Source: an uncultured Thermoplasmatales archaeon
GTDB taxonomy: Archaea > Thermoplasmatota > E2 > DHVEG-1
Length of the DNA stretch: 64,000 nt
Assembly: GCA_964638175.1 (NCBI GenBank)
Contig: CAZWZY010000006.1
Coordinates: 12,386-76,385 of the forward strand
Direction: 5' to 3'
Positions 1-43,361 of the stretch are shown here, piece by piece. The translations under genes and the position numbers were made by a program. Position 1 is the stretch's first letter. Every line of letters begins with the position of its first letter. The notes below the pieces were generated by a model. That model saw nothing but the letters and a program-made list of their open reading frames with translations, searched no databases and had not been told where the DNA came from.

Positions 1-1568
1 TGTACAACCACGTAATTAGCATTCCAGGTTCCTGCCACGTTTTGTTGGTTGCTTGCTGCGCTGTTGTTGTAATACATCCATATCTTTGTGTCAGCGCTGC
101 TCTCAAGCCGAGTGATGTTTACCCAACAGACCAGTTTTCCTGTGGTTCCATTAAAATCTTCAATTTCGTGATTGAGTTTCGTGGTGTTGTCACTGAAGAG
201 CACGAAGGCAATGTCATCGCCGTCATCTTGTGCTTTATCTCGTAAATCGGTGTCTGTGGTACTCACGAGGATGGGAAAGTTTACCATATCTGCATCAACT
301 TGTGAAGAGTTGACGGTGATCAGTTTTCGGTAGTTCCAATTGCTGTTCCACCAGGTGCTGCCTTCAAAGTCGTAGGTAGAGACGTTATCTCTATTGAAGA
401 GCAAGTAGGAGATACGGCCTGAGCTGGGAGCAAGACCGTCCTGAATCTCTTCAAAGGATGGGGCCGTAAACCAGGTTCTGACGGTTACGGGCTCTTGTTG
501 AGGTTGTAAGGAGGTGTAGACGCCGCGATTGAGACCGTCTGCCTTTGCTCCAAGGTTGTTAACCAAGGTTGTTGCTTGTGTTTGGATGGTGTTGGCAAAC
601 GAGACGTCTTTGCTGAACAGAGTAGCTGTCGCAACGGAACGCACCGTTTCTTGCGTAGCATTTGCACCGATAATCTCGATCTTTTCTAAGGCGAGACCGT
701 CTGAATATAACGGTGCAAAGATGGTCTCTGCATCCTCTGCCGTACTGATAGTTCGTTCGACGTAGAAGCTGGCTCCTGGAAGGATGTAACGTTGTTCTTG
801 TTGTGGATTGACGATGAGGTCAGTGGGGGCAGTAATAGTATCATCGCTGACGTTGGTTGGTGGTTGGGTATCATTGGTATAACCATCATCGATTGGTGGA
901 GTGGTATCGTTCTGTGTCTGGTTGTTATCTGGTTGTGTGGTATCGTTCTGTGTGACGTTTCCTTCAGGGGTTTCCTCAGATTCGTTACCGCTCACGTTTG
1001 ATGCAATGGTCCACCGGTAGGTGGTCTGGTAGAAGGTTTGGTTGTAATCAACGGCTGAAAGAGTGATCAGGTGATCTCCTGCAGAGAGATTATGGAAGAG
1101 CCAGGTTCCTTGCCAGAGCCGAGTGGCGATATGGTTATCGATGGTGGTGTTTGCTACCACGGTTAGATTGATGGTCTCGATACCTGAGATATTAGCCCAT
1201 GCGTCAGTAATATTGTAGGACGCAGGAATGGTGGCATTGAAGTAGATGATATCTCCTTCAACAGGATCGATAGGCTCAATGGACACGCCGATATCGAAGT
1301 CGCCTCCTCCGTAGAAGACGGGTAGTGTGGTAAGGAGAAGTCCAAAGACCAGTGCAAGCGAAATCAATGGAAGAATGATCTTGCTCCAGGATAGCTTCGG
1401 ACGAGGTTTGGATGGGGTTCTATGTTGTCGTTTGCTGATAAGGTCTTTCTTGGTTTCCAACGTTTTATCGATGAAGAGACGGTCCACCTGTTCATCGATG
1501 TCGTGTGGTGTTTGGTCGAAGTAATCTTGTAGGCGGTCAAGCCAGCGGAGATCGTCTCTACCGATCAT
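1..1568 (-). CDS. Giant surface glycoprotein paralog 1, N-terminal ~522 codons only (the rest lies beyond the left window edge)
   Basis: Absent from the ORF track because it has no stop in the window. Hand translation of the minus strand from ATG 1568-1566 gives MIGRDDLRWLDRLQDYFDQTPHDIDEQVDRLFIDKTLETKKDLISKRQHRTPSKPRPKLSWSKIILPLISLALVFGLLLTTLPVFYGGGDFDIGVSIEPIDPVEGDIIYFNATIPASYNITDAWANISGIETINLTVVANTT. This is the same cytoplasmic tail, TM helix and first ectodomain as in the 3686- and 2458-aa proteins. The frame was spot-checked open at 421-480, at 301-360 (STWWNSNWNYRKLITVNSS, DUF2341-like) and at 1-60 (AASNQQNVAGTWNANYVVV). The ATG overlaps the TGA of the upstream gene (ATGA, 1565-1568). 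Confidence 0.85.
   Translation of the reverse strand, partial: MIGRDDLRWLDRLQDYFDQTPHDIDEQVDRLFIDKTLETKKDLISKRQHRTPSKPRPKLSWSKIILPLISLALVFGLLLTTLPVFYGGGDFDIGVSIEPIDPVEGDIIYFNATIPASYNITDAWANISGIETINLTVVANTTIDNHIATRLWQGTWLFHNLSAGDHLITLSAVDYNQTFYQTTYRWTIASNVSGNESEETPEGNVTQNDTTQPDNNQTQNDTTPPIDDGYTNDTQPPTNVSDDTITAPTDLIVNPQQEQRYILPGASFYVERTISTAEDAETIFAPLYSDGLALEKIEIIGANATQETVRSVATATLFSKDVSFANTIQTQATTLVNNLGAKADGLNRGVYTSLQPQQEPVTVRTWFTAPSFEEIQDGLAPSSGRISYLLFNRDNVSTYDFEGSTWWNSNWNYRKLITVNSSQVDADMVNFPILVSTTDTDLRDKAQDDGDDIAFVLFSDNTTKLNHEIEDFNGTTGKLVCWVNITRLESSADTKIWMYYNNSAASNQQNVAGTWNANYVVV
949..1001 (-). repeat. 53-nt perfect repeat shared by giant paralogs 1 and 2 (copy in paralog 1)
   Basis: 949-1001 is identical to 13901-13953 (tgtgtgacgtttccttcaggggtttcctcagattcgttaccgctcacgtttga). 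It encodes ..SNVSGNESEETPEGNVTQ.. in both proteins. Confidence 0.9.
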
Positions 1569-2020
1569 GGCCGATCACCTCCTTTTTGCTTGTGCGGGAC
1601 GAGGACGGCGGTGCGGCTGATGATAAATGCCAGCTCATGGAAATAGGGGTTTTCCTCGCGGATCCACTGGAGTAGACGGGAGCGGCCTAACTTGTGTTCC
1701 AATACCTTCAAGACTCGTCGATACGGGATGGGAGAAACAGGACGAGTCTGTTTGAGACGGGAGTGAACATACTCCCGTGCTTCTGCAAAGGTGATGACCT
1801 CGCCAAGGAGTGGGTCAAAGTTCTTGGTCCAGTGATGGATGGTTTGCCTTGAAACATCACCTTTGGTGACCTGGAGCCGGGACAACAGGTCGTTGACAAA
1901 GCCTCGGTACTCCCGCATGTTTTGAAAAGACGGGATGGTTCTGCGGAAGTACAGACAGTAGGCGATAATCGGAAAGGGGATGTTGGTCGGTGGGTAGCCT
2001 TTCAGGGCGTCTTCGGTGAA
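1535..2020 (-). repeat. Module-junction repeat, copy 1 (giant-gene start plus the 3' three quarters of the Zn-ribbon/HTH gene)
   Basis: 1535-2020 aligns with 22650-23135 (offset 21115) with a single mismatch (1560 A vs 22675 G), compared line by line. It is visibly more GC-rich than the flanks. Confidence 0.9.
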
Positions 2021-2155
2021 GTATTTGCCACAGGTTTTGCAAAAAAATTGGAGCTTGTCTTGATGCGGTCGACCATTTTGAATAATATGTTTACTCTGAC
2101 AATGAGGGCAACTAAACGGTAAACGTCTACCTTGTGGTTTGAGTGATCGCCCCAT
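1565..2155 (-). CDS. Zinc-ribbon + HTH DNA-binding protein, IS1-InsA / IS6 N-terminal-module-like, no DDE domain (copy 1)
   Basis: 196-aa ORF. It has two CxxC pairs (CPHCQS...CKTCGKYF), then IPFPIIAYCLYFRR...DVSRQTIHHWTKNF (HTH-like). The stop overlaps the giant-gene start. The last codons spell the SD GGAGGTGATCGGCC (1569-1582). The start lies in a conserved GGGATGGG context. Confidence 0.75.
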   Translation of the reverse strand: MGRSLKPQGRRLPFSCPHCQSKHIIQNGRPHQDKLQFFCKTCGKYFTEDALKGYPPTNIPFPIIAYCLYFRRTIPSFQNMREYRGFVNDLLSRLQVTKGDVSRQTIHHWTKNFDPLLGEVITFAEAREYVHSRLKQTRPVSPIPYRRVLKVLEHKLGRSRLLQWIREENPYFHELAFIISRTAVLVPHKQKGGDRP

Positions 2156-2185
2156 CCCGCTCCGAAAACTGTAACAGAAAGTTAG

Positions 2186-2236
2186 TATTTAAATATTACA
2201 TTTTTCTTATCTTTTATACCCGTATTATTTTTGACG
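2186..2236 (-). promoter_or_regulatory. Putative promoter region of Zn-ribbon gene copy 1: TATA-like TATTTAAATAT (2186-2196) plus conserved upstream TTTGACG motif (2230-2236)
   Basis: The same arrangement (TTTGACG about 74-75 nt and an AT-rich TATA about 35-40 nt from the GGGATGGG start context) recurs upstream of all three Zn-ribbon genes. Confidence 0.4.
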
Positions 2237-2356
2237 TTTTTTCTAACTCCATATGAACTGACAATTAACGGAGAGCAAATGGAGATGCATATGCAAGTGA
2301 ATATGCGGATGCACATGTAGATATGAGGCAGGTGAATGTGCACTTGCGAATGTTGC

Positions 2357-2365
2357 TATTTATAC
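2357..2365 (+). promoter_or_regulatory. TATA-box-like TATTTATAC upstream of signal peptidase paralog 1
   Basis: It lies 30-38 nt before ATG 2395. The paralogous element TATTTATAG sits at the same distance from ATG 2976. This suggests leaderless or near-leaderless mRNAs. Confidence 0.4.
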
Positions 2366-2379
2366 ACTTGAGTAATTAG

Positions 2380-2862
2380 TTGTCTGAGGATGGGATGCAA
2401 CAGGTAATCGCACCAGTATTACCTTCAAAAAGAACACTTTACAGCATAGGTGCAGTATTGCTAGGAATCAGTATACTGCTGGTGATGATTGCCTTTCCTT
2501 TTTCGTGGGCAGTTGTTGGCTCTGAGTCAATGAGTCCCACCTTACAAAAAGGAGATATTTTGATATGGAAGCCGGCTCAACAAACCGATCTTGCCATCGG
2601 CGATATTGTTGTGTATGAAAGCTATACGCAATGGCCCAAGAAAACACTCGTCGTACACCGAATATCGGATATTCTCTATGATAGCACTGGCAGCGTACTC
2701 ATTGAAACAAAAGGAGATGCAAATGAATGGATTGACCAAGAACGGCCGCACGTTCCCCAGCCCTATATTTCATATGAGCACATCATCGGAAAGGTGATTT
2801 GTGTTGGTTCTCAACCGCTCAAGATACCAACTGTTGCGCTATTACATAGCTGGTTTGTGTAG
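2380..2862 (+). CDS. Signal peptidase I, archaeal/ER (Sec11/SipW, S26B) type, paralog 1
   Basis: N-terminal TM helix, then VVGSESMSPTLQKGDIL (catalytic Ser box), LVVHRI (His box) and ETKGDAN (GDxN box). The ORF-track start is TTG 2380; ATG 2395 (MQQVIAP...) is more likely. Confidence 0.8.
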   Translation: MSEDGMQQVIAPVLPSKRTLYSIGAVLLGISILLVMIAFPFSWAVVGSESMSPTLQKGDILIWKPAQQTDLAIGDIVVYESYTQWPKKTLVVHRISDILYDSTGSVLIETKGDANEWIDQERPHVPQPYISYEHIIGKVICVGSQPLKIPTVALLHSWFV

Positions 2863-2935
2863 TAGAATTTTTAGGTAATCTACGAGGTACATATGTAGGT
2901 ACTAGTGCACGTACTCATGCACTTACCAATAGTGG

Positions 2936-2944
2936 TATTTATAG
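2936..2944 (+). promoter_or_regulatory. TATA-box-like TATTTATAG upstream of signal peptidase paralog 2
   Basis: Same spacing to ATG 2976 as in paralog 1. The whole ~110-nt upstream region is paralogous to 2279-2365. Confidence 0.4.
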
Positions 2945-2966
2945 AGAAAGTTGGTTGTAAATAGCA

Positions 2967-3437
2967 GTGGATGGGATGCAGAAACGTGGGTATACGTGCC
3001 TAGTGTCGTCTAGATTGTTCTTTGGTGCACTCTTACTGAGTGTTGGGTGTATTGTTAGTACGCTGTTATTCTCTCCCTTTTCGTTTGCAATTGTCGGTTC
3101 TGCATCAATGAGCCCTTCGTTGTCAAAAGGAGATGTATTACTTTGGGAATCTACAGATATTATCAACATCGCAGTTGGTGATATTGTGGTGTATAAAAGT
3201 CCTGGGTGGTCTGGGGAAAAAATTATTGTACATCGAGTCATAGAGAAAACTGTCGATCATGAGGGTGAAGTGGTCTTAGCAACCAAAGGTGATGCTATCA
3301 CTCAAAATGATCAACAAGAGAGTGTGCTTTCTGAACCGTATGTGGAGAGTGACCAGGTACTCGGAAAAGTTGTATGTGTTGGTGAGCAACCTGTAAAGAT
3401 ACCATTTATTGGCATGATTGGTCTCTTGACAAAGTAA
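2967..3437 (+). CDS. Signal peptidase I, archaeal/ER (Sec11/SipW, S26B) type, paralog 2
   Basis: IVGSASMSPSLSKGDVL, IIVHRVI and ATKGDAITQND, with the same architecture as paralog 1. The likely start is ATG 2976 (MQKRGYT...). It converges on the 3' end of the 3686-aa gene with a 13-nt gap. Confidence 0.8.
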   Translation: MDGMQKRGYTCLVSSRLFFGALLLSVGCIVSTLLFSPFSFAIVGSASMSPSLSKGDVLLWESTDIINIAVGDIVVYKSPGWSGEKIIVHRVIEKTVDHEGEVVLATKGDAITQNDQQESVLSEPYVESDQVLGKVVCVGEQPVKIPFIGMIGLLTK

Positions 3438-3450
3438 TGCCCCCTGTTTT

Positions 3451-6400
3451 TTATGACGCAACAGACTTGAAGGTCACCGTCAGCCCAAGTGGATCAGTGG
3501 TTGACGAGGTGGTTGCCATTAAGAGTTTTAAGTCAAAGGTCTTCCAATTATCAGCAGCAAGATTGGTGACAAAGCTGGTGAAGGACGTGGTAATGTTGGT
3601 CCAGGATGCATCACCATTCTTCTTGTACCACAAACTGAAGTTGTCTTTCGCCGGTGGGGTGGTAAGATTCCATTGCGCACCCGTAGTACTGTTGGTGGCA
3701 TGAGTGGCATTAATGGTGATGTCTAAGGCAACATTTCCTTCATTTGTAAGATTGAAATAGAACCCAGTGGTCTCATTGATATCGCCAATATCAACCGAAC
3801 CCATGTCCCACTGAGGAGGAGCAATATCGAAGGATATGTTCTCTTCTTCTGTTGTAAAATGGAATATCCTGCTTGCATTCGAATCTAATCCATCATCTAC
3901 TGTTACCTTCCACCAATAGGTAGTATTGGTGGATGATGCCTGAGTATAACCCCAGGAAACAGTGGAATTTGCCGATACGCTGGTATTGGTTTGATTGACT
4001 ACCCATTCTCCCCATACTTCAAATGCATGATCATCAGTAGCATCAAGAGTGAATCCAGCTGTATCATTTCCATATCCTCTCACACCACCAGAGTATGTTG
4101 GACTGGTAGTATCTGTATGCCATTCTATATCGTTATCAGTATCACCATATTCACACATAGCGACAATGGCATATGTTGTTCCTTGTGAAAGTTCTACTGG
4201 CACATCCCAAGTTACATTCCACGTTCCATCAGGAGGGTAAGTTGAGGGAAGAGATGCTCCTGTTATTGTTTTACTTGCAAGATAACTATTCATGAGAGGA
4301 TGACCAGTTGCATTGGTTTCTCTAAGTTGGAAGGTTGCGTTTGGTGGGTTTCCATATTTACAGACGTACGGTGAAATATCTGTGCATTCAAAGGTTGCAT
4401 TTGTTCCTGTCGTTCCAATGGTAAATGTTTGGAATTCGTACCATCCGGCATGATAGTAATATGGCGAATTTGACTCAGTATATTGTTCGAAGGTTTGTGC
4501 ACCACTAGCATTCTGCCAAAAGTTCACGATAAGTGTATCTCCATCAGAATCGTTTGCCCAGACCTGACAAGTTGGTTGTAATGACACGTCGGTACTACCA
4601 TTCTTCGGAGTTATAGGTGTTATTGTTGGCAGTGTATTGGTTTTGTTATTTGCACTGGCATTCTCATCTGACCATTGATGGACGGTGGGGTTGTATGTCC
4701 ACGTTGTGTAAGACCAAATCTGGTAGTAATACGTCGTTCCCTCTGCAAGTCCAGTGTGTTCATATGAGGTCCCGGTATCATTATAGATCATGGTTCCTTG
4801 TCCTCGAGGCCAACTGGAAGCAGTTGTGTTGTATTCAATATAGGTGTTATTTGCTCCCGTTCCTTTTACCCATGTAAGATTGATTTGTGTAGAGTTATAT
4901 GATGTTGCATTGAAGTTTGTTGGTGCATTTGGTTTTGTTAGAAATGCCATATCTGAGCCATAAGATGCCGCAACTGAGTTGTTTGCAGAAGCGCGGTAAT
5001 GATACAATGTTCCTGGCGCAAGAGAAATCGAATAGTTCACTTCTGCATATATTTGAGTGCATAAACTATTTAATAATCCATCCCAATAGAATAATCCGAT
5101 TCCAATTTCAAGGGAATCTACATCATTTTTTGTCCACGGCTGTCCATCTGAAGGTCTTGTTGTCCATGTTTCTGATTTTAAACCCCAAGATACAGGTAAT
5201 GATTTAATGCCGCTATCTGATTTTACACCATTCTCCTTTATAGATAATTTTACTTCACCAGCCGCGCCTTCTTTTTTGCACATTGCATAAACAGTAACAG
5301 AATTGATAGTTGCTCCGTTGGGAATAGAACTATCAGTCACATTATATAAATCGAATGAATGATCTTGATCGATAGCGCCTTTCACATAAGTATCATCTCC
5401 ATCTGAGGTTACCTCATCAACGCTTTCCCAATTTGTTGGGGCAGGGTCATTTCCATCTATAGCACATTGAGTAAGGCTCCCCGCTGCATTTGGTCGTAAT
5501 ACTTCAGTTTGGTAACCACCTAAACTATCTAAATTATAACTAAACTCATCACCAGTCGATTTTGTTTGATTGCTAGTTGTATTCCCATAACTTATGGTAG
5601 TTCCATATTCGAACCAGACGGTGCAGTTCTCTCCACCATCATTACTGAGATAACCATGCAAGGTAGCGTTGGTTTCTTCGACACCGGTAGAAGCGTTTGT
5701 TGTGACAATAGGAACAACTGAAGGATCACAATGACATATTGCATCAGCAACCGGTGGTGATGTTTCATCAGTACTCCCGGATTTTTTACCGATGCTGTAA
5801 AACTCGTAATAACCAGTGCCGTTTGGGAAGGAAAAGTTCCATTGCCAAGGGCTGCTGGTATCAGGATTACTCGCATCGCTCCATTGCATCCATCCTTCCT
5901 CATCTGCAACAGTCAGAAACGTTGTGGTATTTATGATGGTATTATAGGTGGTATTCATCCATTCATTGCTTCGTACTACTTTGCTAATACGTGCTTCATC
6001 AAATCGTCCATCCCAGCAATTTCCAGCAGCATCATTCCCTATTAATAGATAATTATGGTTCTCTTGTAACGATGCTCCCGTAGTAAATGTATCATCAAAA
6101 CCATCAACGGTTTTATTGTAATGCATAGAGGTGGGATCAATACCAGCGCCACCACCATCTTCATCATACGTACCCCAGAGATACCACCAATAGCCTACAC
6201 CACCAACTCCAGAACCATAATTATCAGGAACATTACCTCCTTGTACAAATTGACTCACTCTCAACCATCTTAGTTCGTAATTATCTTGTGTTCTAAGATA
6301 AACACCCCAATCATTATCAGTCCAGTCTGGCCCTTCCATAAAGATTCTGGGATATGTAACATCATTATTATTAAGATTAAGCCAGATTTCGGCTGTAATC

Positions 6401-9400
6401 TGGTCGTTTAGTGAGTACCAATTGGTGACATTGACGACTCGCTCCTCTGCATCACTATTCTGCATACCTCCTGCTATAATTCCTGTTGCACTTACCATGT
6501 TGGTATTTGTACCATTATAATTGTTTCCAGAAGAATCATTGAAGCTATTATTGAAGTGCCATACAGCCACATAATCGCCATCCCATGTGCCTGCTACATT
6601 CTGTTGGCTTATACACGTTGTGTTTCCAAAGTATAGATAAATTTCAGTATCAACTGAAGCGCTGAGGCTGGTGACATTCACCCATGCGATAAGGGTACCA
6701 CTCGTGCCGTTAAACGACTCTATTTCGTGGTTCAGTTTAGTTCCGGTTATATTAGTAAAGACAACATCGTCTCCATCATCCTGAGCGCTGTTTGCGAGAC
6801 CCATATCAGTGATACTGACAAGTATCGGGAAGTCGGTGAGATCATCATCAACTTGATTATGATCTATGGTTAATTTCTTCCGATATTTCCAGGAGGCATT
6901 CCACCAGTCAGAAGCATTCCCCCAATTCGAATTATCAGAAGAATAGCGGTACCATAGGGTTACATTATCATAGTCATTATGTTGAGCGGTGGCATTAATC
7001 GTTAATGAAGAAGAGAATATCTCGTATGGGCTAATTGCATCAACCGATGTACTAATCGATCCCGTAGTGAAGTGATATGTTTCATTACACCAATACGTAC
7101 CATCAGTGAGGTTTACACTCCAATAGCATATTGTACCATAATTACTAAAGTTAGTATTTATTTGACTGATATTTACACTGCCACTACTAGCATCAATGCT
7201 ATTATTGGTGGCGAACAATGCCCAACCACCACTACTGTTGCTATACCAATACGCAGTTAAAGTATCACCATCAGCGTCATCTACGGTGACATTTAACACA
7301 GGAATAATGCTGATATTCGTCGCTCCATTTGATGGGGATGGGGAACTCTGCGTCGGTTCAGGAGATAATATCTCAAGAGTGCGTGTTTCGGTTGTATTCT
7401 CATTTCCTGCCACATCAATGGCATGAGCATAATACGAATAGTTCCCAACAGATAATCCTGTAAAGTTATGATGTAGCTTGTAGTCTGAGGAGTTATAAGA
7501 AGCGTTTATTTCTTCCCAGCTGAGAACTCGGTTCCATACACGTACTTCATCGATGGATCCATTGAAAAGAAATGCTGTTCCAGGGCTTTCGCCACCAATA
7601 CATAATGGAAGACTATTTGTCCCGATAGGGCCAGTGGTGGCCGGTGTTACAGTGCCTGCATCCGCACCGTTAATGTAATATTGTATGGTGGTACCATTGT
7701 AGGTTGCAACAACGTGTGACCATTCTCCCTGATTAAATCCACTAGATGACCATAAGTCATTTCCTTGTGCTACCCCACCAAACTCCGCTGCCAGTTCTAT
7801 TTTTCCAGTACCCATAATTCTAAGTGCGTACGCTGATATCCGGCTTTTACTGACTAACCGGGGCCAACCTATGAACGTCCCATAGTTCACCCATGCTTCA
7901 ATCGTGATTTCATCAGTAATATCGAAGCTTACATCATTTCCACAGTCAACATAGTCGCCGCTATCAAAACTGAGAGCAGATCCAAACTTTCCCGTTGTCA
8001 GATTTGGTAATCCTGTATTCAACCAGAGAGCATATGAATCTCCCTCGTTAAATCCTGTCAATGTGTCTTGGAAATAGAGTGCCCTGTAAGATTCATTGAC
8101 AACTTCATAATCTGAGATAATGGTAGTATTACCGTTCGCCAATCCAGAAGTGGCCATAAATGTCCATCCATTAAAAACATCGTCTGCAGTCTGTAACGTA
8201 TCATCATCTACACACTGTGTTTCATTGGTGGCAGCCACATCTGCAATACCAGTAATATTAGTATATTCTCGAGTTCCATTGTTACCATAGGTAGAATTAT
8301 CAAAGACATGTGTAGCATTGGTGTGTTCAAAGCTCCAATAACCGACGAGACTATTATCCCAGTTGATAAAGCTTGAGGTGTCGCTAGAATCTGAGACGGT
8401 AACATTAATCTGTGCATAAGTATCGGTTGTTTCAGTATCATTTGCGGGAGTTGGCGGAGTGTCAAAGGAGATGGAAGGAGCAGTATCATCGAATAGACAT
8501 ATTACATCAGCACTCCCTGGCGCAGACTCAATATTGGTAAAGTTATCCGTCGCAATACTGTAGAATTCGTAATAACCAGTACCGTTGGGGAAGGTAAAGG
8601 TCCAATTCCAGTCATAATCAGTATCGGTTGTGTTTTCCACCCAGCCACCCCAGCTACTGTTATCCGATGAATAGCGATACCATAAGGTGACGTTCTTTAC
8701 ACCTGATAACTCATCTGATGCGGTAGCTGTAATCTCTATCAATCCTGTGGAATTTACATACGGAGAAATTGTATCAATTGACGAACTTGGAGGTTGGTTA
8801 TCAGAGCCAGCAACCGCATCTCTTCCTTCAATAATTCTTCCATAATAGATACTATATGGAGAAGAGGTTCCTTGCCTCCAGACGAAATCAATTTTTGTGC
8901 CATATGGCCCCAGCACGCAACTTGGAGAGTCATGCCCTGTATTATCATTTGTTATTGAGATATTACCACTAAGCGAGTTGTTGGTTCTCCAGAACGTTCG
9001 GTAGAAAATATCATAATTTGCATTAATTGTATCTGATCTGAAAAGAATATACACTTCTGTACTATTGTGTCCTCTGGAGATGTGTGCTCCTCCTGAATCG
9101 TTATGAACCGCATAGTCTGAGGACCAGCTTAAGGTGGGGATAGGAGTATATCTGACATATCGAGTGTTATCGTTACTATGCCAATAAGTTAAATAGAGAT
9201 ATCCATCAGAAGTAACAACAATGGATGGGTCCTGTCGGTAGTTTGTCCCCCAAAGCGACCGGGCATTTATGGTCCATGATGTTCCTCCGTTATACTGGAT
9301 ACGTTGAGTATACCCATTACCTCCATTTGCACTCCATTGCCGAGGCGAGACCCAAATATCCTGCGTTGATGGATCGATATCGACAGAGAGATCATAACTT

Positions 9401-12400
9401 CCCGATCCATGATCAACGCCAGCATCTGTTCCCCATGTCGATCCTCCATCAGTCGAGTTTGAATGCAGCAATATGGGATCATCAAATTTTGTCCAGACAA
9501 TGTGAATATAGTCGTTAGAATCAACAAGGATGTGAGGGTGACGTATACGATCGTATCTATCTCCGCTACTACCATAATCTCTTGCATCGGCAACTTCAGC
9601 AGTACTGCCCCAACTCCATGTCCACGGATTGTTTGCTTTGTCCACCGTACCGTTCTTGTACCATAATCGGTGGGCACCTGCATCAGCAATTTCTCGATAA
9701 TCTCCCATGCAAAAGTGGAGATTGTCACTAGAATCTATAGCGACACCAAGCATGGTATAGGGATTATCCTCAAGAACTTCGGTGTCCCAGGTCATCCCAT
9801 CATTGTACGAACGGGCATACATCACTTTGTCATCAGTAGAGTTATAGTAAATAATATGAATTGTTCCATCGGAAGTTCTTACAATTTGACGTCCGTCGCC
9901 GCCCGTTGTCGTACCTGGAGAATCTATCAAAAACGTATCAGCAATACCTGGAGATGATTCTTCATTGCTAGCATTGTCACAAGCGATGCTATAAAACTCA
10001 TAATAGCCACTACCGTTGGGGAAGGTAAAGGTCCAATTCCAGTCATAATCAGTATCGGTTGTGTTTTCCACCCAGCCACCCCAGCTACTGTTATCCGATG
10101 AATAGCGATACCATAAGGTGACGTTCTTTACACCGCTGTAGCCATCAAATGCATACGCTGATAATTCGACACTACCGCTATTGTTCCAATATGGAGAAAT
10201 CGTTTTAACGCTGGATGAAGGTGTTGTGTTATCACGATAACAGAACGCATCGGCACTACCTGGAGTCGATTCATTAACTGACTTGGCTTTTTTCCCGATA
10301 CTGTAGAACTCATAATAGCCAGTACTGTTAGGGAAGTCGAAATTCCAACTCCAAGGACTGCTCGTATCTGGATTGTTTGCGTTATTCCATTTTTGCCAAT
10401 CCCCTTGAAGTTCAAATAAATAGTCGTCATCAGTATCCTGAGTCCACCCACCGATAGCACTGTACGTCCATTCACTACCACCAGAATAGGAAGCTGAAGT
10501 GCTGTCATATCTAAGATAGACGTATTTATCTCCAGTTCCGCTTGCACTCCATGTCATCGCATAGGTAGTACCTGCTTGAAGCTCGTAGCCACCAAAATCA
10601 ACTGCCCACCATTCATAATCAGCAGTTGATGCAGCTGAAACATTTCCTGATCCTTGTATCAGATATCCTCCGCTGGTATTTGGCTGACCACCAGCAATCG
10701 TTGGATACAACTTACAATATAATCTCTCAACACCACTATCTATGTTGATAAGGAATTTAATACTGTTTAAGTTGAATGTTTCGTTGGCACCGACAGCGCC
10801 GATGGTAAACGTTTGATAATAAGTAGTGCTTATCAGCATAGTGCCAGTGTAATATAATCGGTCAGCGTCACCGCCTGTCTTGTAATACTCGTATGTGTTA
10901 TTATTTGTTCGATACCACAAGGTGACATTATCTGGAGGTAAACCGTTATTAGAAGCAGTAATAGTCAATGAGGGGGTGGTGACATTATAGGGAATGATAG
11001 TATCAATCGTTGTGTTTAACGGTGCATAACATATTGCATCAGCAGCATCTGGAGGGGTCTCATTCTCAACGCCTGATTTATTGCCGATACTGTAGAATTC
11101 GTAATATCCTGCGCCGTCCGGGAAGTCAAAACTCCACTGCCAAGGACTACTTGTATCAGGATTGTTTGCGTTATCCCATTTCTGCCAATCTCCATGAAGT
11201 TCAAACAACACATCATCATCAGTCATTTCTTGCCAAGCTCCTACGCTTGGTTTATACCACATACTACCACCAGGATACGTAGCAGAAGTAGTATCGTTAG
11301 CCAGATACAGAGAATTGCCCATCGTTCCACTTATGCCCCATTTCATTGCATAGGTTTCACCCGCTTGCAGTGTATATCCATCGAAATTGACTGATCGCCA
11401 TTCCCACGTTGTGTTTGAGGTTTCTGAAACACCACCGGAGCCAGATGTTAGCGATCCACCACCGGTATCTGGCTGACCATTATCATCAGTCGGATACAAG
11501 GTACACGTTAACGTACTGACACCGCCAGGCGAGCTTTGTTTTATGAGAAAGTCAATATTCGTTAAATTGTATGTTCTTGTGGCGCCCACAGCACCGATGG
11601 TAAATGTTTGATAGTAGGTCCCAGTTGATGCTCCAAGAACTTGATATGTAAGGTAGTCGTCGTTACCTGTGGTATATTCTTCAATATTCCAAGAGTTGTT
11701 ATCAAGAGAATGCCGGTAATAGAGAGTAACATTATCCACAGCACTATAATTGGTAGCGGTAATAGCAAGAGGATCTGAGGTTATCTGATAAGGACTAATG
11801 GCATCAACGGCAGTGCTAATCTGGCTATATTCGACATTAAGTTTTGCACCATACACCTGTGAACTATATTCATACGACCAGATGATGAGATTTCCTACAT
11901 TTTCATTTTTTCCTTTCAGAAGTACGGTTAGGTTATTACCACTACTCCATCCCGAACGATCAATAACTTCTTGAACAGCATCTGTAAAGTCTGGACTCTG
12001 TATCCATGTGCTCGTTCCCACATTGGTATCTGTCCATTCCGTAGAATTCTCAGTGGTTGTCCGGCTGGCAACATCGTAGTTATCCAAAAAATTCTGAGAG
12101 TCGTCAATGGCTTCACAATATATGTCAAGGTTGGGATCATCATGAGATCCACTAGAATACGTGTACACTTCAAGATATGCATCATCTATAAAGGCACCAT
12201 TTGGAATAGAAATATCTGAGAAAAATAAACCACCATTGTATCTACTTGTGTCAGTCGTGCTATCATCAGCCCTTATATATTGTGCTGTACGACTAATGGA
12301 AGATTCGGCATCATTTTCATAGGCGTCATTGACACCAGCATCAATCTGTGTATCAATACTTGGGTCGATCACCACTGGAAACTCCATATGATTGAGATCT

Positions 12401-14511
12401 GATACTTTGATACCAGAGAGAAGATAATATTCGCCATCATGTTGGACAAAACGATATGTCAACTGTTGTCTTATACTCTTGTTATGCAATTCGTATGCAT
12501 TGCCAACGGGCATGAAAAACTTAAGATCATCCAAGACATCCTTAAAATTAATCTGTCCATCTGTTACTGTAAAATCATCTCTCTTTTCCTTCCCATCACT
12601 ATATAACAGGAGGTTTTGATAATCCAATTTAGTAATAAATACCAGATATGAGTCCTGATTGCTAAATCCGTAAGTAGATGGTGGGGCATTCTGTAATACT
12701 GTTTTTGTCGTATTTGTCATTACAATTTCTTCCTTAAGTCCATGTGGGGTGTATCGCCACGTGATATTCATACCACTAAAGACATTGGGAAATACACACG
12801 CACTCCCCTGGATTGATGGTTGTACCGACTGAATGCTTTGCAAGTACTCATATTGCCAATTCTTTGATGGGTCGAGATATCCTACGCCAACCAATTTACT
12901 ACGCAAGACATCCACACTAGGATCGTTTGATTTGCCATACGCGAAAGCAATGGGCCATTCCGCTGAAAGATCAGGTTTGAAATACACATTAAACAATCCT
13001 CGTTCATTCCCTGCTCGATAACCATATTCATAAGCCGGGTGAGATGCATTCAACAAAGACACATTACATAGAATGGGATGCCATTGTCCTTCCTCGTCCT
13101 GATAATTAACAGGGCCAAGATAGCTTACATATCGATAGTGGCCACTGGAAGTGTCATAATATTTATTCCAGTTCATCCCTTGTTCAACAAGAATATGATC
13201 TGGTGAAGTGGCCAATTTGTCGGCTATATCTGGGGGATTAGGATCAGGAACTACTGAAAAGGCAATTTCTTGTGGGGTCGTTGTGTTCTTCTGCGGTTCT
13301 GCGAGTGTACTTGCAGAAGCAAAGGAGGAGATTGTGCTCCAGAAGGAAGTGGTACGATTGTATCCCCAGGCGGCATAATAGCAACTCGTACTTTGGGTAA
13401 GATTGGTGTCATTATATGATGGTGCGGTTCCGTTGTAAAGGACAATACCGTCAGCCGTATGTTCTGGATAGCCTTCGGTGTTTCGTACCACATATGTGGT
13501 ATCTGATCCTCTTCCTTTGCTCCAGGAGAGATGGATGGTGGTTGTATTCAATGCACGAGCAGTGAAGTTACCTGGAGGAGCGACTGGCTGCTCTGTTGCA
13601 TTGCTTGTCACAGTTATCTGCAGTATTTTCTGTATCGTAGTATTGCCTACCGTAGCATTGACCTCGAACACATAGTCTCCAGGCAATGCTGCCCGTATGC
13701 TATAGTTGAAGGTACCGTTACTGGCATTGATGGGATGCGAAGTAGTGAGATTTGGACCGGATATGGAAAAGTTTACACTGGTATTGATAAGGGTTTCGTT
13801 GTAGTAAATAAGACCGTGAAGAGCAATGGTCTCGTTTACTGTGTACTGTTGTTTATCAGTCCAAAGGTCAAGGCTAAGGGTGTCATTTGTGGTCTCGTTT
13901 TGTGTGACGTTTCCTTCAGGGGTTTCCTCAGATTCGTTACCGCTCACGTTTGAGTCTAACCAACGATAGGTAGTCTGGTAGAATGTTTGGTTGCGGCCTA
14001 TTGCTGAAATGGTAATCAAATGGTCCCCCGCAGAAAGATTGTGGAGGAACCAGGTGCCTTGCCAGAGCTGGTCAGTGGTACGATTACCCACAGTAGTATT
14101 TGCGACCATCGTCAGATTGATAGTCTTGATACCTGAGATATTAGCCCATGCGTCAGTAATATTGTAGGATGCAGGAATCGTGGCATTGAGGTAGATCAGG
14201 TCTCCTTCAACAGGATTAAGCGGTTCAATGGAGACACTGATATCGAAATCTCCACCATAAAAGATAGGCAATATCGACAGAATCATGGCAACGATAATCG
14301 CAACTGAGACAAGTGGGAGGATAATTTTGGTAAGTGGTGTCTTTTTGCGTGGTTTTGAGGTAGTTGGTTGTTGATGCTTCTTGATCCGATGGGTGTTTGC
14401 CTCTAAGGTTTTGTCAATGAAGAGACGATCGACACGATCGTCAATGTCATGGCGTGTTGATGAGTTAGTATGGAGGCGGTCAAGCCAGCGGAGATCGTCA
14501 TTGCCTATCAC
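3451..14511 (-). CDS. Giant (3686 aa) N-terminally anchored multidomain surface glycoprotein, paralog 2
   Basis: Uninterrupted ORF. It starts with a conserved cytoplasmic tail and a single TM helix (IILPLVSVAIIVAMILSILPIF). Motifs read from the translation: FN3-like (PNAPTNFNATSYNSTQINLTWVKGTGANNTYIEY); BNR/Asp-box sialidase-like (SYNDGMTWD, STDGGSTWG; nt ~8704-10010); LamG/ConA-like (LPLCIGGESPGTAFLFNGSIDEVRVWNRVLSWEEI; DGRFDEARISKVVRSNEW); DUF2341-like (WWNASWKYRKKLTIDHNQVDDDLTDFPILV...IYLYFGN); five ...GYYEFYSI modules; and a C-terminal ~127-aa domain shared with two other proteins. The GTG start overlaps the upstream TGA (GTGA). Confidence 0.9.
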   Translation of the reverse strand: MIGNDDLRWLDRLHTNSSTRHDIDDRVDRLFIDKTLEANTHRIKKHQQPTTSKPRKKTPLTKIILPLVSVAIIVAMILSILPIFYGGDFDISVSIEPLNPVEGDLIYLNATIPASYNITDAWANISGIKTINLTMVANTTVGNRTTDQLWQGTWFLHNLSAGDHLITISAIGRNQTFYQTTYRWLDSNVSGNESEETPEGNVTQNETTNDTLSLDLWTDKQQYTVNETIALHGLIYYNETLINTSVNFSISGPNLTTSHPINASNGTFNYSIRAALPGDYVFEVNATVGNTTIQKILQITVTSNATEQPVAPPGNFTARALNTTTIHLSWSKGRGSDTTYVVRNTEGYPEHTADGIVLYNGTAPSYNDTNLTQSTSCYYAAWGYNRTTSFWSTISSFASASTLAEPQKNTTTPQEIAFSVVPDPNPPDIADKLATSPDHILVEQGMNWNKYYDTSSGHYRYVSYLGPVNYQDEEGQWHPILCNVSLLNASHPAYEYGYRAGNERGLFNVYFKPDLSAEWPIAFAYGKSNDPSVDVLRSKLVGVGYLDPSKNWQYEYLQSIQSVQPSIQGSACVFPNVFSGMNITWRYTPHGLKEEIVMTNTTKTVLQNAPPSTYGFSNQDSYLVFITKLDYQNLLLYSDGKEKRDDFTVTDGQINFKDVLDDLKFFMPVGNAYELHNKSIRQQLTYRFVQHDGEYYLLSGIKVSDLNHMEFPVVIDPSIDTQIDAGVNDAYENDAESSISRTAQYIRADDSTTDTSRYNGGLFFSDISIPNGAFIDDAYLEVYTYSSGSHDDPNLDIYCEAIDDSQNFLDNYDVASRTTTENSTEWTDTNVGTSTWIQSPDFTDAVQEVIDRSGWSSGNNLTVLLKGKNENVGNLIIWSYEYSSQVYGAKLNVEYSQISTAVDAISPYQITSDPLAITATNYSAVDNVTLYYRHSLDNNSWNIEEYTTGNDDYLTYQVLGASTGTYYQTFTIGAVGATRTYNLTNIDFLIKQSSPGGVSTLTCTLYPTDDNGQPDTGGGSLTSGSGGVSETSNTTWEWRSVNFDGYTLQAGETYAMKWGISGTMGNSLYLANDTTSATYPGGSMWYKPSVGAWQEMTDDDVLFELHGDWQKWDNANNPDTSSPWQWSFDFPDGAGYYEFYSIGNKSGVENETPPDAADAICYAPLNTTIDTIIPYNVTTPSLTITASNNGLPPDNVTLWYRTNNNTYEYYKTGGDADRLYYTGTMLISTTYYQTFTIGAVGANETFNLNSIKFLINIDSGVERLYCKLYPTIAGGQPNTSGGYLIQGSGNVSAASTADYEWWAVDFGGYELQAGTTYAMTWSASGTGDKYVYLRYDSTSASYSGGSEWTYSAIGGWTQDTDDDYLFELQGDWQKWNNANNPDTSSPWSWNFDFPNSTGYYEFYSIGKKAKSVNESTPGSADAFCYRDNTTPSSSVKTISPYWNNSGSVELSAYAFDGYSGVKNVTLWYRYSSDNSSWGGWVENTTDTDYDWNWTFTFPNGSGYYEFYSIACDNASNEESSPGIADTFLIDSPGTTTGGDGRQIVRTSDGTIHIIYYNSTDDKVMYARSYNDGMTWDTEVLEDNPYTMLGVAIDSSDNLHFCMGDYREIADAGAHRLWYKNGTVDKANNPWTWSWGSTAEVADARDYGSSGDRYDRIRHPHILVDSNDYIHIVWTKFDDPILLHSNSTDGGSTWGTDAGVDHGSGSYDLSVDIDPSTQDIWVSPRQWSANGGNGYTQRIQYNGGTSWTINARSLWGTNYRQDPSIVVTSDGYLYLTYWHSNDNTRYVRYTPIPTLSWSSDYAVHNDSGGAHISRGHNSTEVYILFRSDTINANYDIFYRTFWRTNNSLSGNISITNDNTGHDSPSCVLGPYGTKIDFVWRQGTSSPYSIYYGRIIEGRDAVAGSDNQPPSSSIDTISPYVNSTGLIEITATASDELSGVKNVTLWYRYSSDNSSWGGWVENTTDTDYDWNWTFTFPNGTGYYEFYSIATDNFTNIESAPGSADVICLFDDTAPSISFDTPPTPANDTETTDTYAQINVTVSDSSDTSSFINWDNSLVGYWSFEHTNATHVFDNSTYGNNGTREYTNITGIADVAATNETQCVDDDTLQTADDVFNGWTFMATSGLANGNTTIISDYEVVNESYRALYFQDTLTGFNEGDSYALWLNTGLPNLTTGKFGSALSFDSGDYVDCGNDVSFDITDEITIEAWVNYGTFIGWPRLVSKSRISAYALRIMGTGKIELAAEFGGVAQGNDLWSSSGFNQGEWSHVVATYNGTTIQYYINGADAGTVTPATTGPIGTNSLPLCIGGESPGTAFLFNGSIDEVRVWNRVLSWEEINASYNSSDYKLHHNFTGLSVGNYSYYAHAIDVAGNENTTETRTLEILSPEPTQSSPSPSNGATNISIIPVLNVTVDDADGDTLTAYWYSNSSGGWALFATNNSIDASSGSVNISQINTNFSNYGTICYWSVNLTDGTYWCNETYHFTTGSISTSVDAISPYEIFSSSLTINATAQHNDYDNVTLWYRYSSDNSNWGNASDWWNASWKYRKKLTIDHNQVDDDLTDFPILVSITDMGLANSAQDDGDDVVFTNITGTKLNHEIESFNGTSGTLIAWVNVTSLSASVDTEIYLYFGNTTCISQQNVAGTWDGDYVAVWHFNNSFNDSSGNNYNGTNTNMVSATGIIAGGMQNSDAEERVVNVTNWYSLNDQITAEIWLNLNNNDVTYPRIFMEGPDWTDNDWGVYLRTQDNYELRWLRVSQFVQGGNVPDNYGSGVGGVGYWWYLWGTYDEDGGGAGIDPTSMHYNKTVDGFDDTFTTGASLQENHNYLLIGNDAAGNCWDGRFDEARISKVVRSNEWMNTTYNTIINTTTFLTVADEEGWMQWSDASNPDTSSPWQWNFSFPNGTGYYEFYSIGKKSGSTDETSPPVADAICHCDPSVVPIVTTNASTGVEETNATLHGYLSNDGGENCTVWFEYGTTISYGNTTSNQTKSTGDEFSYNLDSLGGYQTEVLRPNAAGSLTQCAIDGNDPAPTNWESVDEVTSDGDDTYVKGAIDQDHSFDLYNVTDSSIPNGATINSVTVYAMCKKEGAAGEVKLSIKENGVKSDSGIKSLPVSWGLKSETWTTRPSDGQPWTKNDVDSLEIGIGLFYWDGLLNSLCTQIYAEVNYSISLAPGTLYHYRASANNSVAASYGSDMAFLTKPNAPTNFNATSYNSTQINLTWVKGTGANNTYIEYNTTASSWPRGQGTMIYNDTGTSYEHTGLAEGTTYYYQIWSYTTWTYNPTVHQWSDENASANNKTNTLPTITPITPKNGSTDVSLQPTCQVWANDSDGDTLIVNFWQNASGAQTFEQYTESNSPYYYHAGWYEFQTFTIGTTGTNATFECTDISPYVCKYGNPPNATFQLRETNATGHPLMNSYLASKTITGASLPSTYPPDGTWNVTWDVPVELSQGTTYAIVAMCEYGDTDNDIEWHTDTTSPTYSGGVRGYGNDTAGFTLDATDDHAFEVWGEWVVNQTNTSVSANSTVSWGYTQASSTNTTYWWKVTVDDGLDSNASRIFHFTTEEENISFDIAPPQWDMGSVDIGDINETTGFYFNLTNEGNVALDITINATHATNSTTGAQWNLTTPPAKDNFSLWYKKNGDASWTNITTSFTSFVTNLAADNWKTFDLKLLMATTSSTTDPLGLTVTFKSVAS
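8580..8703 (-). repeat. 124-nt perfect intragenic direct repeat, copy A
   Basis: 8580-8703 equals 10011-10134 base for base. The offset is 1431 nt (477 codons, in frame). It encodes GVKNVTLWYRYSSDNSSWGGWVENTTDTDYDWNWTFTFPNG. Confidence 0.9.
10011..10134 (-). repeat. 124-nt perfect intragenic direct repeat, copy B
   Basis: See 8580-8703. Confidence 0.9.
13901..13953 (-). repeat. 53-nt perfect repeat shared by giant paralogs 1 and 2 (copy in paralog 2)
   Basis: See 949-1001. Confidence 0.9.
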
Positions 14512-15101
14512 GGCCGATCACCTCCTTTGGGTTTGTGTGGGACGAGAACGGCGGTGCGGCTGATGATAAATGCCAGCTCATGGAAATAGGGGTTTTCCTC
14601 GCGGATCCACTGGAGTAGACGGGAGCGGCCTAACTTGTGTTCCAATACCTTCAAGACTCGTCGATACGGGATGGGAGAAACAGGACGAGTCTGTTTGAGA
14701 CGGGAGTGAACATACTCCCGTGCTTCTGCAAAGGTGATGACCTCGCCAAGGAGTGGGTCAAAGTTCTTGGTCCAGTGATGGATGGTTTGCCTTGAAACAT
14801 CACCTTTGGTGACCTGGAGCCGGGACAACAGGTCGTTGACAAAGCCTCGGTACTCCCGCATGTTGGAGAAGGACGGGATGGTTCTGCGGAAGTACAGACA
14901 GTAGGCAATGATTGGGAATGGGATGTTTGTTGATGGGTAGCCTTTCAAGGCGTCTTCGGTGAAATATTTACCACACGATTTGCAAAAAATTTCTTGTTTT
15001 GCTCCATGAGGATGCCCGTTAAAAACAAGTGCATCTTGTCTGCAATGAGGACAAATTGATAAGGAATCTTTACCCATCCCGTTCCAATGTATGCAACTCA
15101 A
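14508..15101 (-). CDS. Zinc-ribbon + HTH DNA-binding protein, InsA-like (copy 2)
   Basis: 197-aa ORF from TTG 15101. The likely start is ATG 15077 (MGKDSLSICPHC...) in the conserved GGGATGGG context. The C-terminal ~150 aa are almost identical to copies 1 and 3. The stop overlaps the GTG of the 3686-aa gene. Confidence 0.75.
   Translation of the reverse strand: MSCIHWNGMGKDSLSICPHCRQDALVFNGHPHGAKQEIFCKSCGKYFTEDALKGYPSTNIPFPIIAYCLYFRRTIPSFSNMREYRGFVNDLLSRLQVTKGDVSRQTIHHWTKNFDPLLGEVITFAEAREYVHSRLKQTRPVSPIPYRRVLKVLEHKLGRSRLLQWIREENPYFHELAFIISRTAVLVPHKPKGGDRP
14548..14864 (-). repeat. Module-junction repeat, copy 2 core (317 nt identical in all three copies)
   Basis: 14548-14864 = 1605-1921 = 22720-23036. 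Scattered mismatches appear on both sides of this core. Confidence 0.9.
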
Positions 15102-15107
15102 TTAGAG

Positions 15108-15261
15108 TATTTAAATATTTTTTTATTATTGAAGAAAATCAGGATTATATTTGACGTAATCTGGACAAAAAAAAGACAATTATACCCGTAACAAAAGTCA
15201 ATCATAGTTTATTTATAAATACTTTTTTGTTATTTGATATTTATCCGGATTATATTTGACG
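15108..15261 (-). promoter_or_regulatory. Putative promoter/operator region of Zn-ribbon gene copy 2
   Basis: TATTTAAATAT at 15108-15118. The 15-nt perfect repeat GGATTATATTTGACG occurs at 15142-15156 and 15247-15261 and contains the TTTGACG motif. Confidence 0.4.
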
Positions 15262-15306
15262 CTATTTACGATAGATGCAACTATTCATTGTAAAAACAAA
15301 AAAAGA

Positions 15307-22683: not shown

Positions 22684-23135
22684 GGCCGATCACCTCCTTT
22701 TTGCTTGTGCGGGACGAGGACGGCGGTGCGGCTGATGATAAATGCCAGCTCATGGAAATAGGGGTTTTCCTCGCGGATCCACTGGAGTAGACGGGAGCGG
22801 CCTAACTTGTGTTCCAATACCTTCAAGACTCGTCGATACGGGATGGGAGAAACAGGACGAGTCTGTTTGAGACGGGAGTGAACATACTCCCGTGCTTCTG
22901 CAAAGGTGATGACCTCGCCAAGGAGTGGGTCAAAGTTCTTGGTCCAGTGATGGATGGTTTGCCTTGAAACATCACCTTTGGTGACCTGGAGCCGGGACAA
23001 CAGGTCGTTGACAAAGCCTCGGTACTCCCGCATGTTTTGAAAAGACGGGATGGTTCTGCGGAAGTACAGACAGTAGGCGATAATCGGAAAGGGGATGTTG
23101 GTCGGTGGGTAGCCTTTCAGGGCGTCTTCGGTGAA
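22650..23135 (-). repeat. Module-junction repeat, copy 3
   Basis: See 1535-2020. Confidence 0.9.
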
Positions 23136-23258
23136 ATATTTACCACAAGATTTGCAAAAAAATTGAATTTTTCCTTCGAGAGGATGGCGACTCTGGACTA
23201 TCTGTCCACTAGAACAATACGGACAAATAAATCGAGTTGGCAATCCCATCCTTTTCAA
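22680..23258 (-). CDS. Zinc-ribbon + HTH DNA-binding protein, InsA-like (copy 3)
   Basis: 192-aa ORF from TTG 23258. The likely start is ATG 23249 (MGLPTRFICPYC...). A second GGGATGGG start context at 23269 opens only ATG GGC ACT ATT TGA. The stop overlaps the ATG of the 2458-aa gene. Confidence 0.75.
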   Translation of the reverse strand: MKRMGLPTRFICPYCSSGQIVQSRHPLEGKIQFFCKSCGKYFTEDALKGYPPTNIPFPIIAYCLYFRRTIPSFQNMREYRGFVNDLLSRLQVTKGDVSRQTIHHWTKNFDPLLGEVITFAEAREYVHSRLKQTRPVSPIPYRRVLKVLEHKLGRSRLLQWIREENPYFHELAFIISRTAVLVPHKQKGGDRP

Positions 23259-23298
23259 ATAGTGCCCATCCCGCTCACATACAGAATGGGAAAGGTAG

Positions 23299-23452
23299 TT
23301 TATAAATGTTTATTTTTTTATAACATATTCATATGTTTTTAATTTGACGTTTTTGGAAAAAAAGAGTATTGTCTGATAATGAACGTAAACTAGGAAATGA
23401 AGTTTTTATATAATAATTTTTTCTATCTTTTATCTATGTTTTATATTTGACG
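23299..23452 (-). promoter_or_regulatory. Putative promoter/operator region of Zn-ribbon gene copy 3
   Basis: TTTATAAAT at 23299-23307 and TTTGACG at 23343-23349 and 23446-23452. The segment ttttttctatcttttat...tatatttgacgtt resembles 2203-2240. Confidence 0.4.
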
Positions 23453-26519: not shown

Positions 26520-26650
26520 GTTTCTTGTTGGCGTGAACTTGATTAGGATCCCTCCTCAGTTGTCAAATTTGTTATAATAAATGCTTGTTTTTAAAGTTAT
26601 GGTCGTGTGTTTAGAGAAGACATTATTTAAAAAGCAAGTGTTTATTTTAT

Positions 26651-28561: not shown

Positions 28562-28737
28562 GAAACCGCTCACCACCTTTTTTAGTAGTATAATACTTTG
28601 TTATATATTACCATGACTTACTTTGTCATTACCTACTTATATACCTATCCTGTAAAACCATCATATACGACAAAATAACAAAACGACATTTTGTCATCTC
28701 CCGTTTTCCCACCTTAACGGCGCTCATCACTTCTTAT

Positions 28738-28975: not shown

Positions 28976-29087
28976 CACAACATATTCTCGGATACAAAAC
29001 ACTGGCACAGTTTTAATAAACGTCTGTTAATATTGGGAAAACAATCGTTAAACCGGTGGAAACTATCTTTTTTAATATTAAAGTCGT

Positions 29088-29581: not shown

Positions 29582-29682
29582 CTTTTAGACCAACAGGAGT
29601 ATTGGTTAATTTTTATTGGTAAATATCTGTTCTTTCCAGATGACAAAACAGGTGAGGGATTGTAACTCTGGGGCTATAGTCC

Positions 29683-43350: not shown

Positions 43351-43361
43351 GGTGATTGATC

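Follow-up and report, generated by a model that had tools for sequence, protein, structure and literature searches.

Gene conversion drives the concerted evolution of tufA and tufB in Salmonella and of rRNA operons, and it equalizes genome copies in polyploid haloarchaea and methanogens. Such cases of prokaryotic concerted evolution have a recognizable pattern: identical tracts are bordered by diverged flanks, and the grouping of sequences follows the genome within the tract and orthology beyond it, with recombination by RecA or RadA as the presumed cause. Segmental conversion is also known from surface proteins, as in Neisseria pilE/pilS, Borrelia vlsE and Anaplasma msp2, where clustered surface genes recombine at conserved segments and silent, promoterless cassettes diversify one expressed gene. 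For bacteria, GC-biased gene conversion, which would raise the GC content at third codon positions (GC3) where recombination occurs, is said to have been proposed by Lassalle et al. in 2015. Here, we analyzed 64,000 nt of DNA from an uncultured Thermoplasmatales archaeon (contig CAZWZY010000006.1 of GenBank assembly GCA_964638175.1; the whole stretch is referred to below as the window), in which three tandem modules, each made up of a small gene and a giant gene, carry a nearly identical direct repeat. Recent gene conversion between the modules very probably explains this repeat.

The locus displays the same pattern of tracts, flanks and groupings as the textbook cases, from which it differs in two respects: its tract takes in a single domain of a small accessory gene together with the site where translation of a giant gene begins, in tandem modules 8-21 kb apart, and this tract coincides with a sharp GC3 island. 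As in the clustered surface genes, relatives of the locus reshuffle the N-terminal zinc-ribbon parts of their small genes (hereafter, heads) and their giant genes. Unlike in the cassette systems, conversion here would homogenize a cytoplasmic accessory protein and not an exposed one, and no cassette-type arrangement for antigenic or phase variation was found in the three modules, each of which comes with its own CGTCAAA box, TATA-like element and intact open reading frames (ORFs); nor was any switching seen. The locus resembles the bacterial cases of GC-biased conversion in that GC3 is raised where recombination occurs; it differs from them in that the process would act between paralogues in one genome and is known from composition alone. 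In our literature searches, we found no report of GC-biased conversion among archaeal paralogues, and no description of the small-gene/giant-gene pair. The mechanism is ordinary, while the gene pair and its conserved upstream CGTCAAA box are new. The example is nonetheless an exceptionally clear one, from a lineage in which such cases have rarely been documented, and arguments for GC-biased conversion in prokaryotes draw on this kind of pattern, a domain-sized tract dated by orthologues together with a GC3 step within one gene.

The repeated tract and its modules

The three modules are arranged in tandem, with every gene concerned on the minus strand. The genes and repeat copies are as follows:

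1565-2155, minus strand: small gene A, 196 aa; IS1/IS1595-type N-terminal zinc ribbon and eight-helix domain
14508-15077, minus strand: small gene B, 189 aa, starting with MGKD; its sequence is P0001
22680-23249, minus strand: small gene C, 189 aa, starting with MGLP
1-1568, minus strand, cut by the window edge: giant gene A, at least 522 aa; cytoplasmic tail, membrane helix, sequon-rich shared domain, Thr/Pro/Asn/Gln linker, DUF2341
3451-14511, minus strand: giant gene B, 3686 aa; Laminin_G_3, DUF2341; start codon GTG, which overlaps the stop of small gene B
15307-22683, minus strand: giant gene C, 2458 aa; subtilase S8, F5/8 type C
1535-2020, minus strand: repeat copy A; runs from codon ~46 of small gene A to its last codon (196) and on to codon 11 of giant gene A, with the ribosome-binding site and the ATGA overlap
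14478-14963, minus strand: repeat copy B; exact core at 14548-14864
22650-23135, minus strand: repeat copy C; identical to copy A save at the position matching 1560

When compared without gaps, copies A and C show 1 mismatch in 486 nt (at position 1560), and their longest exact run spans 460 nt (1561-2020). A core of 317 nt is shared by all three copies with zero differences (1605-1921, equal to 14548-14864 and 22720-23036). Both of these identities had been claimed by an earlier note on this DNA, and both turned out to be exact on recomputation. Copy B differs from copy A at 24 of the 486 positions (95% identical), all 24 of which fall outside the 317-nt core. No copies beyond A, B and C were found when the repeat segment was searched against the whole 64-kb window with blastn. 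Immediately beyond the repeat edges, ungapped identity drops to ~25%. Gapped alignment reveals flanks that are homologous yet diverged, with 50-67% identity in the zinc-ribbon part and 47-90% over the first ~600 nt of the giant genes, in line with the strong divergence that had been described there. The GC-richness ascribed to the repeat holds as well (0.52-0.55 in 300-nt windows, against 0.41 for the whole window), and it extends to GC3 across the whole segment shared between the modules. The description of the repeat as a "module junction", on the other hand, is misleading, as the repeat is mostly coding and corresponds to the C-terminal three quarters of the small gene and not to an intergenic region. 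Read on the minus strand, it contains small-gene codons ~46-196, the GGAGGTGA ribosome-binding site, the overlap of the small-gene stop with the giant-gene start (ATGA in modules A and C, GTGA in module B) and 11 giant-gene codons.

Gene conversion and its alternatives

For the evolutionary comparison, we used related small-gene loci or contigs from other metagenomes, which are given L-numbers here; the family as a whole comprises ~50 sediment metagenome loci. Over core codons 81-186 (78 synonymous sites), synonymous divergence (dS) among the three window copies is 0-0.01. Between the same copies, zinc-ribbon codons 1-45 have a proportion of synonymous differences (pS) of 0.70-0.88 and a nonsynonymous divergence (dN) of 0.36-0.52, and giant-gene codons 12-200 have a dS ranging from ~0.9 to more than 2. 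Considering that flanking synonymous sites differ at 44-88%, a run of 78 consecutive sites with at most one change is not due to chance. In codons 46-80, copy B differs from A and C with a pS of 0.44 and a proportion of nonsynonymous differences (pN) of 0.04, which reads as plain purifying selection without conversion. Core synonymous sites do vary between genomes: from the window copies, core dS is 0.29 to L018, 0.44-0.54 to L068, L071 and L008, and 1.15 to L016. Nucleotide constraint therefore cannot explain the identity within the window.

In identity matrices, the heads group by orthologue and the cores by genome. The head of copy A is 88% identical at the nucleotide level to that of L018 and 85% to that of L016, the head of B is 83% identical to that of L068, and the head of C 73% to that of L071, while all other pairs reach 52-68%. 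The cores of the window copies are 100% identical to one another and 78-90% identical to those of the same orthologues; within the sister set L008/L068-L071, cores are 87-95% identical. Lineage-specific substitutions are directly displayed in the protein alignment. The gene context indicates the same orthology, with an S26 peptidase gene upstream in L016 and L018, as in copy A, and with the genes upstream of copy C (510, 291 and 198 aa) having orthologues in L071. As a control, we considered other orthologue pairs of the family, for which head and C-domain identities are 0.94/0.90, 0.93/0.87, 0.88/0.84 and 0.90/0.82. Since head identity is at least as high as C-domain identity in these pairs, the head is not intrinsically fast-evolving. 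Among the relatives, L069 and L071 (both from a single sample) have heads that are 59-63% identical and reach 98-100% around the small/giant junction, and L018 and L065, which come from sister samples and have different heads, have derived synonymous variants in common over the ~50 nt readable in both. In the window itself, the tracts are nested and mosaic (460-486 nt between A and C, 317 nt between all three, and B equal to C with A differing at positions 2021, 2027 and 2035), which implies several events. With a tract dS of ~0 between saturated flanks, cores that differ between orthologues, and heads and cores that group in conflict, the gene conversion proposed by the earlier note is borne out, and the process may still be ongoing.

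The segment shared by the modules also stands out in its codon usage. The islands of high GC3 are located at:

968-2005, minus strand: GC3 island of module A (GC3 0.5-0.8, against 0.2-0.4 in the head), small-gene codon ~50 to giant-gene codon ~200 (boundaries approximate)
~13911-14927 and ~22083-23099, minus strand: GC3 islands of modules B and C, equivalent spans (boundaries approximate)

From 0.2-0.4 in the first ~50 small-gene codons, GC3 rises to 0.64-0.80 in the next block; it remains at 0.5-0.7 through the rest of the small gene up to giant-gene codon ~200, and is ~0.3 in the giant bodies. Because this jump takes place within a single gene, expression level cannot account for it. The step is present in the window copies, L008, L071 and L016, and is missing from L009 and L062, which are distant relatives. 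The extent of the island matches that of the homology between modules, to which conversion is necessarily confined. GC-biased conversion would be the simplest reading of this island.

Several other explanations account for part of these observations. Extreme purifying selection on the nucleotide sequence, imposed by an RNA or DNA element in the coding region, would require no conversion, and the tract does include the elements from which giant-gene translation starts (ribosome-binding site and start codon); yet the orthologous cores differ by 10-21% of bases, mostly synonymous (dS 0.29-1.15), and no Rfam family matches in the window, so that we regard this explanation as barely credible. A recent duplication of whole modules, with very fast diversification of heads and giants afterwards, is conceivable in that surface proteins often evolve fast and head dN is as high as 0.36-0.52. 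Diversifying selection does not, however, explain why synonymous sites in the flanks are saturated, and the heads have 73-88% identical orthologues in other genomes, so the paralogues are older than those splits; such a duplication is highly improbable. The GC content of the tract, which exceeds that of its surroundings, and the transposase-related N-terminal domain could instead point to a one-off replacement from outside, either by a higher-GC relative or by a mobile cassette inserted three times. Here too the probability is very small, since the segment is an in-frame, integral part of a two-domain protein kept in ~50 loci, has neither inverted repeats nor a transposase domain, has a GC3 island that reaches into the giant gene and is present throughout the close clade, and consists of nested tracts that imply several events.

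An assembly artefact, in which similar copies were collapsed into one consensus that is traversed three times, or in which heads and giants were misjoined, has to be considered as well, given that the contig is metagenomic or derived from the Sequence Read Archive. Several related contigs end inside the small gene (L018 at residue 138, L065 at residue 98, and also L059, L066 and L024), so assemblers struggle there, as is expected for a repeat longer than the assembler k-mer. Nevertheless, copy B retains 24 private differences adjoining the core, which argues against wholesale smoothing. The pairing of the A head with giant gene A is corroborated by L016 (S26 gene upstream, 85% identical head, giant gene like that of A), and this pairing, together with the linkage of unique segments, makes the observed path the only consistent one. 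The head/core conflict and the GC3 island, moreover, recur in independent assemblies at identities below 100%. An artefact of this kind is unlikely in our view. The repeat does explain why these loci are fragmented in assemblies, and pairings of heads with giants in short-read metagenome-assembled genomes need caution.

Four points weigh against our interpretation of the locus. The window belongs to a metagenome-type assembly (an 84-kb public contig, NCBI/Logan), and consensus collapse could exaggerate the perfect identity. The sister-clade paralogues come from several samples and possibly from several strains, which makes homogenization within a genome less certain. The GC bias of the conversion has composition as its sole basis. 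Finally, DNA binding by the small protein, which is discussed below, is hypothetical, its helical domain having no match in Pfam or the PDB.

If gene conversion shaped the locus, as we consider very probable, the modules would be old paralogues whose heads, promoters and giant bodies diverged to saturation, each head having its own orthologue elsewhere. Non-reciprocal homologous recombination would then have replaced everything in the small gene from codon ~46 onwards, along with the first giant-gene codons. RadA-type recombination between modules 8-21 kb apart may copy this segment repeatedly, and the process would be self-reinforcing, as higher identity allows readier recombination. In the long term, repeated conversion biased to G/C alleles would give rise to the GC3 island across the shared segment.

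The small protein, its giant partner and the upstream box

Residues 16-49 of the small protein match the NCBIfam family of IS1/IS1595 N-terminal zinc-binding domains (NF050000) with 38.2 bits, above the cut-off of 28. The Pfam family Zn_ribbon_InsA (PF03811) matches 21 of 27 family members at E-values up to 1 (best 5e-8); the scores are 16.1 bits for window copy A and 26.7 for P0031, the gathering cut-off being 26.1. The IS1 transposase family NF033558 reaches 29 bits against a cut-off of 100, with residues 16-51 alone matching and no catalytic domain. The small protein thus has the CxxC...CxxC zinc ribbon in common with InsA and the IS1/IS1595 elements, but unlike InsA of IS1, it is encoded by a gene that has no transposase domain, is tied to a giant gene and does not lie within an insertion sequence. 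An AlphaFold model based on the alignment of 27 sequences (predicted local distance difference test score, pLDDT, of 84) consists of a three-stranded ribbon followed by eight helices. A Foldseek search of this model against the PDB gave no match at E < 0.3, with the ribbon alone aligning (to the generic ribbons of eIF2-beta, Rpb9 and Elf1, at E > 0.3). For the helical domain, no match was found in Pfam or the PDB, a profile search of the PDB returning ribbon hits alone. When aligned with hhalign to E. coli InsA (with the InsA sequence entered by hand), 36 ribbon columns align and the helical domain does not. The label of helix-turn-helix (HTH) that had been attached to the C-terminal part was not confirmed: HTH_23 gives weak matches in 6 of the 27 members (best E 0.053), accompanied by no structural match of Foldseek in the PDB, which makes it a lead and not a result.

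The family of the small protein is small and unannotated. Among 5.8 billion proteins, it forms 24 clusters at 90% identity; at the 50% identity level, there are 71 clusters with E < 1e-10, ~40 of which represent two-domain proteins of ~200 aa. A scan of GTDB representative genomes gave matches confined to the zinc ribbon of unrelated IS1-like genes, and an exact-sequence look-up of small protein B (P0001) returned no record. In every family locus with downstream sequence, a long ORF on the same strand starts at -46 to +22 nt after the small gene. The complete downstream ORFs encode giant proteins of 1619-2798 aa, except for one truncated ORF of 197 aa, and the remainder run off their contigs. 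The small gene and the giant gene are an obligate pair. This combination of an InsA-like zinc-ribbon protein and a giant surface protein, with its conserved box, is unannotated elsewhere and is found in ~50 sediment metagenome loci.

At their N-termini, the giant proteins have in common a tail of ~60 aa (MIGRDDLRWLD...) and one membrane helix, which are followed by a domain of ~110 aa rich in N-glycosylation sequons and by a Thr/Pro/Asn/Gln linker. Past ~200 codons, the giant-gene bodies are unrelated up to a common C-terminal domain, the last ~190 aa being shared by giant B and giant C. The giant product is predicted to be a membrane-anchored surface protein and the small product to be cytoplasmic. 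The conserved C-terminal domain ends with TFKSV(A/V)S (window positions 3451-4020 and 15307-15880, minus strand; also in L008). Direct repeats inside giant genes B and C (5782-11223 and 17923-19949) correspond to repeated domains, such as 8506-8703 and 9937-10134, which are 87% identical.

Upstream of the small genes, we found a conserved box, CGTCAAA(W3)AA, which occurs five times in the window (0.05 expected), each time upstream of a small gene:

2223-2236, minus strand: CGTCAAA box of module A, located ~80 nt before small gene A, with TATA-like TTTAAATA at 2186-2193
15143-15156 and 15248-15261, minus strand: two CGTCAAATATAATC boxes of module B, with a TATA-like element after each; tandem promoter-like units
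23336-23349 and 23439-23452, minus strand: two CGTCAAAT boxes of module C, upstream of small gene C

The box is located ~40 nt upstream of a TATA-like element, and modules B and C each have two such units of box and TATA-like element in tandem. Across the family, 17 of 36 distinct loci have it between -78 and -80 relative to the start codon, and a further box is frequent around -210; L035, L041, L060 and L061 are among the loci that bear it. Its position makes it a candidate operator. As a side observation on the start of small gene C, a 4-codon upstream ORF, ATGGGCACTATTTGA, occupies the usual start position (23249-23290, minus strand), and the real ATG lies 20 nt downstream; this arrangement resembles a short duplication of the GGGATGGGC start region.

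As a tentative working hypothesis, which we hold to be quite possible though somewhat short of probable, the InsA-like small protein would bind the CGTCAAA box and thereby regulate its own module. If the small protein did indeed regulate by binding DNA at the boxes that precede every module, all copies would have to read the same site, and homogenization of the C-terminal part would therefore be tolerated or favored. Alternatively, the small protein could be a cytoplasmic partner of the conserved N-terminal tail of the giant protein.

Rearrangement of modules and the surrounding genes

The modules vary among relatives in number and in combination. The region between modules B and A serves as a landmark for these comparisons:

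2380-2862 and 2967-3437, plus strand: two S26 signal-peptidase paralogues between modules B and A; L016 and L018 have this arrangement too

These peptidases may be dedicated enzymes for the processing of the giant proteins. Along 5.1 kb of giant gene C, the window and L018 have 88% identity; in L018, a 3' end of the giant C type is followed directly by the S26 region and an A-type small gene, without module B. The window is thus longer than L018 by 11.9 kb at this place (3451-15306), which amounts to the whole of module B. The small-gene repeat was ruled out as the mediator of this insertion or deletion, because the switch, from sequence like giant gene C to sequence like that downstream of giant gene B, falls on the stop codon of the giant gene. 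L018 also has a mosaic giant gene (1-6228), in which a DUF2341 part like that of giant A is joined to a region 90% identical to residues 722-2458 of giant C, and which lacks the subtilase and F5/8 type C domains. L071 has an orthologue of the C head and the genes upstream of C, but its giant gene is like giant A over all 432 visible residues. L008 and L071 have one giant gene in common (72-88% nucleotide identity over at least 1.3 kb, 98% at the junction), while no relationship is seen between their heads or upstream contexts (48-65%); the changeover lies at nt ~120-180 (codon ~40-60) of the small gene, which is the 5' edge of the window tract. In L065, the upstream context of C is followed by an inserted island and then by a small gene with yet another head. 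This island (3744-9498) is AT-rich, comes after the orthologue of the 198-aa gene and contains two AbiE-like gene pairs, as judged by eye from the translations.

Gain, loss and re-pairing at the level of modules thus take place in the family. One class of breakpoints falls at the 5' edge of the repeat; for the best-mapped insertion or deletion, the conserved 3' ends of the giant genes were used instead. The repeats had been proposed as a recombination substrate, by which whole giant genes could be deleted, duplicated or swapped. On comparison with related assemblies, this proposal stands in part: L018, L071 and L008 do vary by gain, loss and re-pairing of modules, with one switch at the 5' edge of the repeat, but the sole breakpoint that could be placed within tens of bases, that of the module B difference, is at the giant-gene stop codon and lies outside the repeat. 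A role of the repeats in exchanging giant genes is plausible, and the homology that permits conversion may mediate module exchange as well.

The proposals made above can be combined into a broader and more speculative one. The segment from small-gene codon ~45-50 to giant-gene codon ~200 might be a recombination hot spot that keeps a shared regulator domain uniform and re-pairs promoter/zinc-ribbon heads with giant bodies, with the InsA-like protein regulating through the CGTCAAA boxes. The locus would then be an archaeal counterpart of surface-variation loci, with a signature of GC-biased conversion. Taken as a whole, we think this combination rather doubtful.

The remaining window resembles ordinary chromosome, with gyrB, gyrA, purL, and genes for a Rad50-like ATPase and an undecaprenyl diphosphate synthase; no tRNA genes or Rfam families were found in the window. 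The TATA-like promoters, the sequon-rich giant proteins and the sediments from which the relatives were sampled look archaeal; from the C25 peptidases and the sample types, an origin in Thermoprofundales (MBG-D) might be guessed. The gyrA gene (43356-47216, plus strand) contains an intein with LAGLIDADG homing-endonuclease domains. Three genes encode C25 (gingipain-like) peptidases (47237-49759, plus strand; 49808-52726 and 59747-61276, both minus strand), and proteins with PKD domains and F5/8 type C domains are encoded at 24987-28576, so that the neighborhood is rich in secreted proteases and adhesin-like proteins. At ~28950-30000 and 31112-32059, an AT-rich stretch (27-32% GC) containing small ORFs adjoins a gene with a Fic/DOC domain; it may represent an inserted element.

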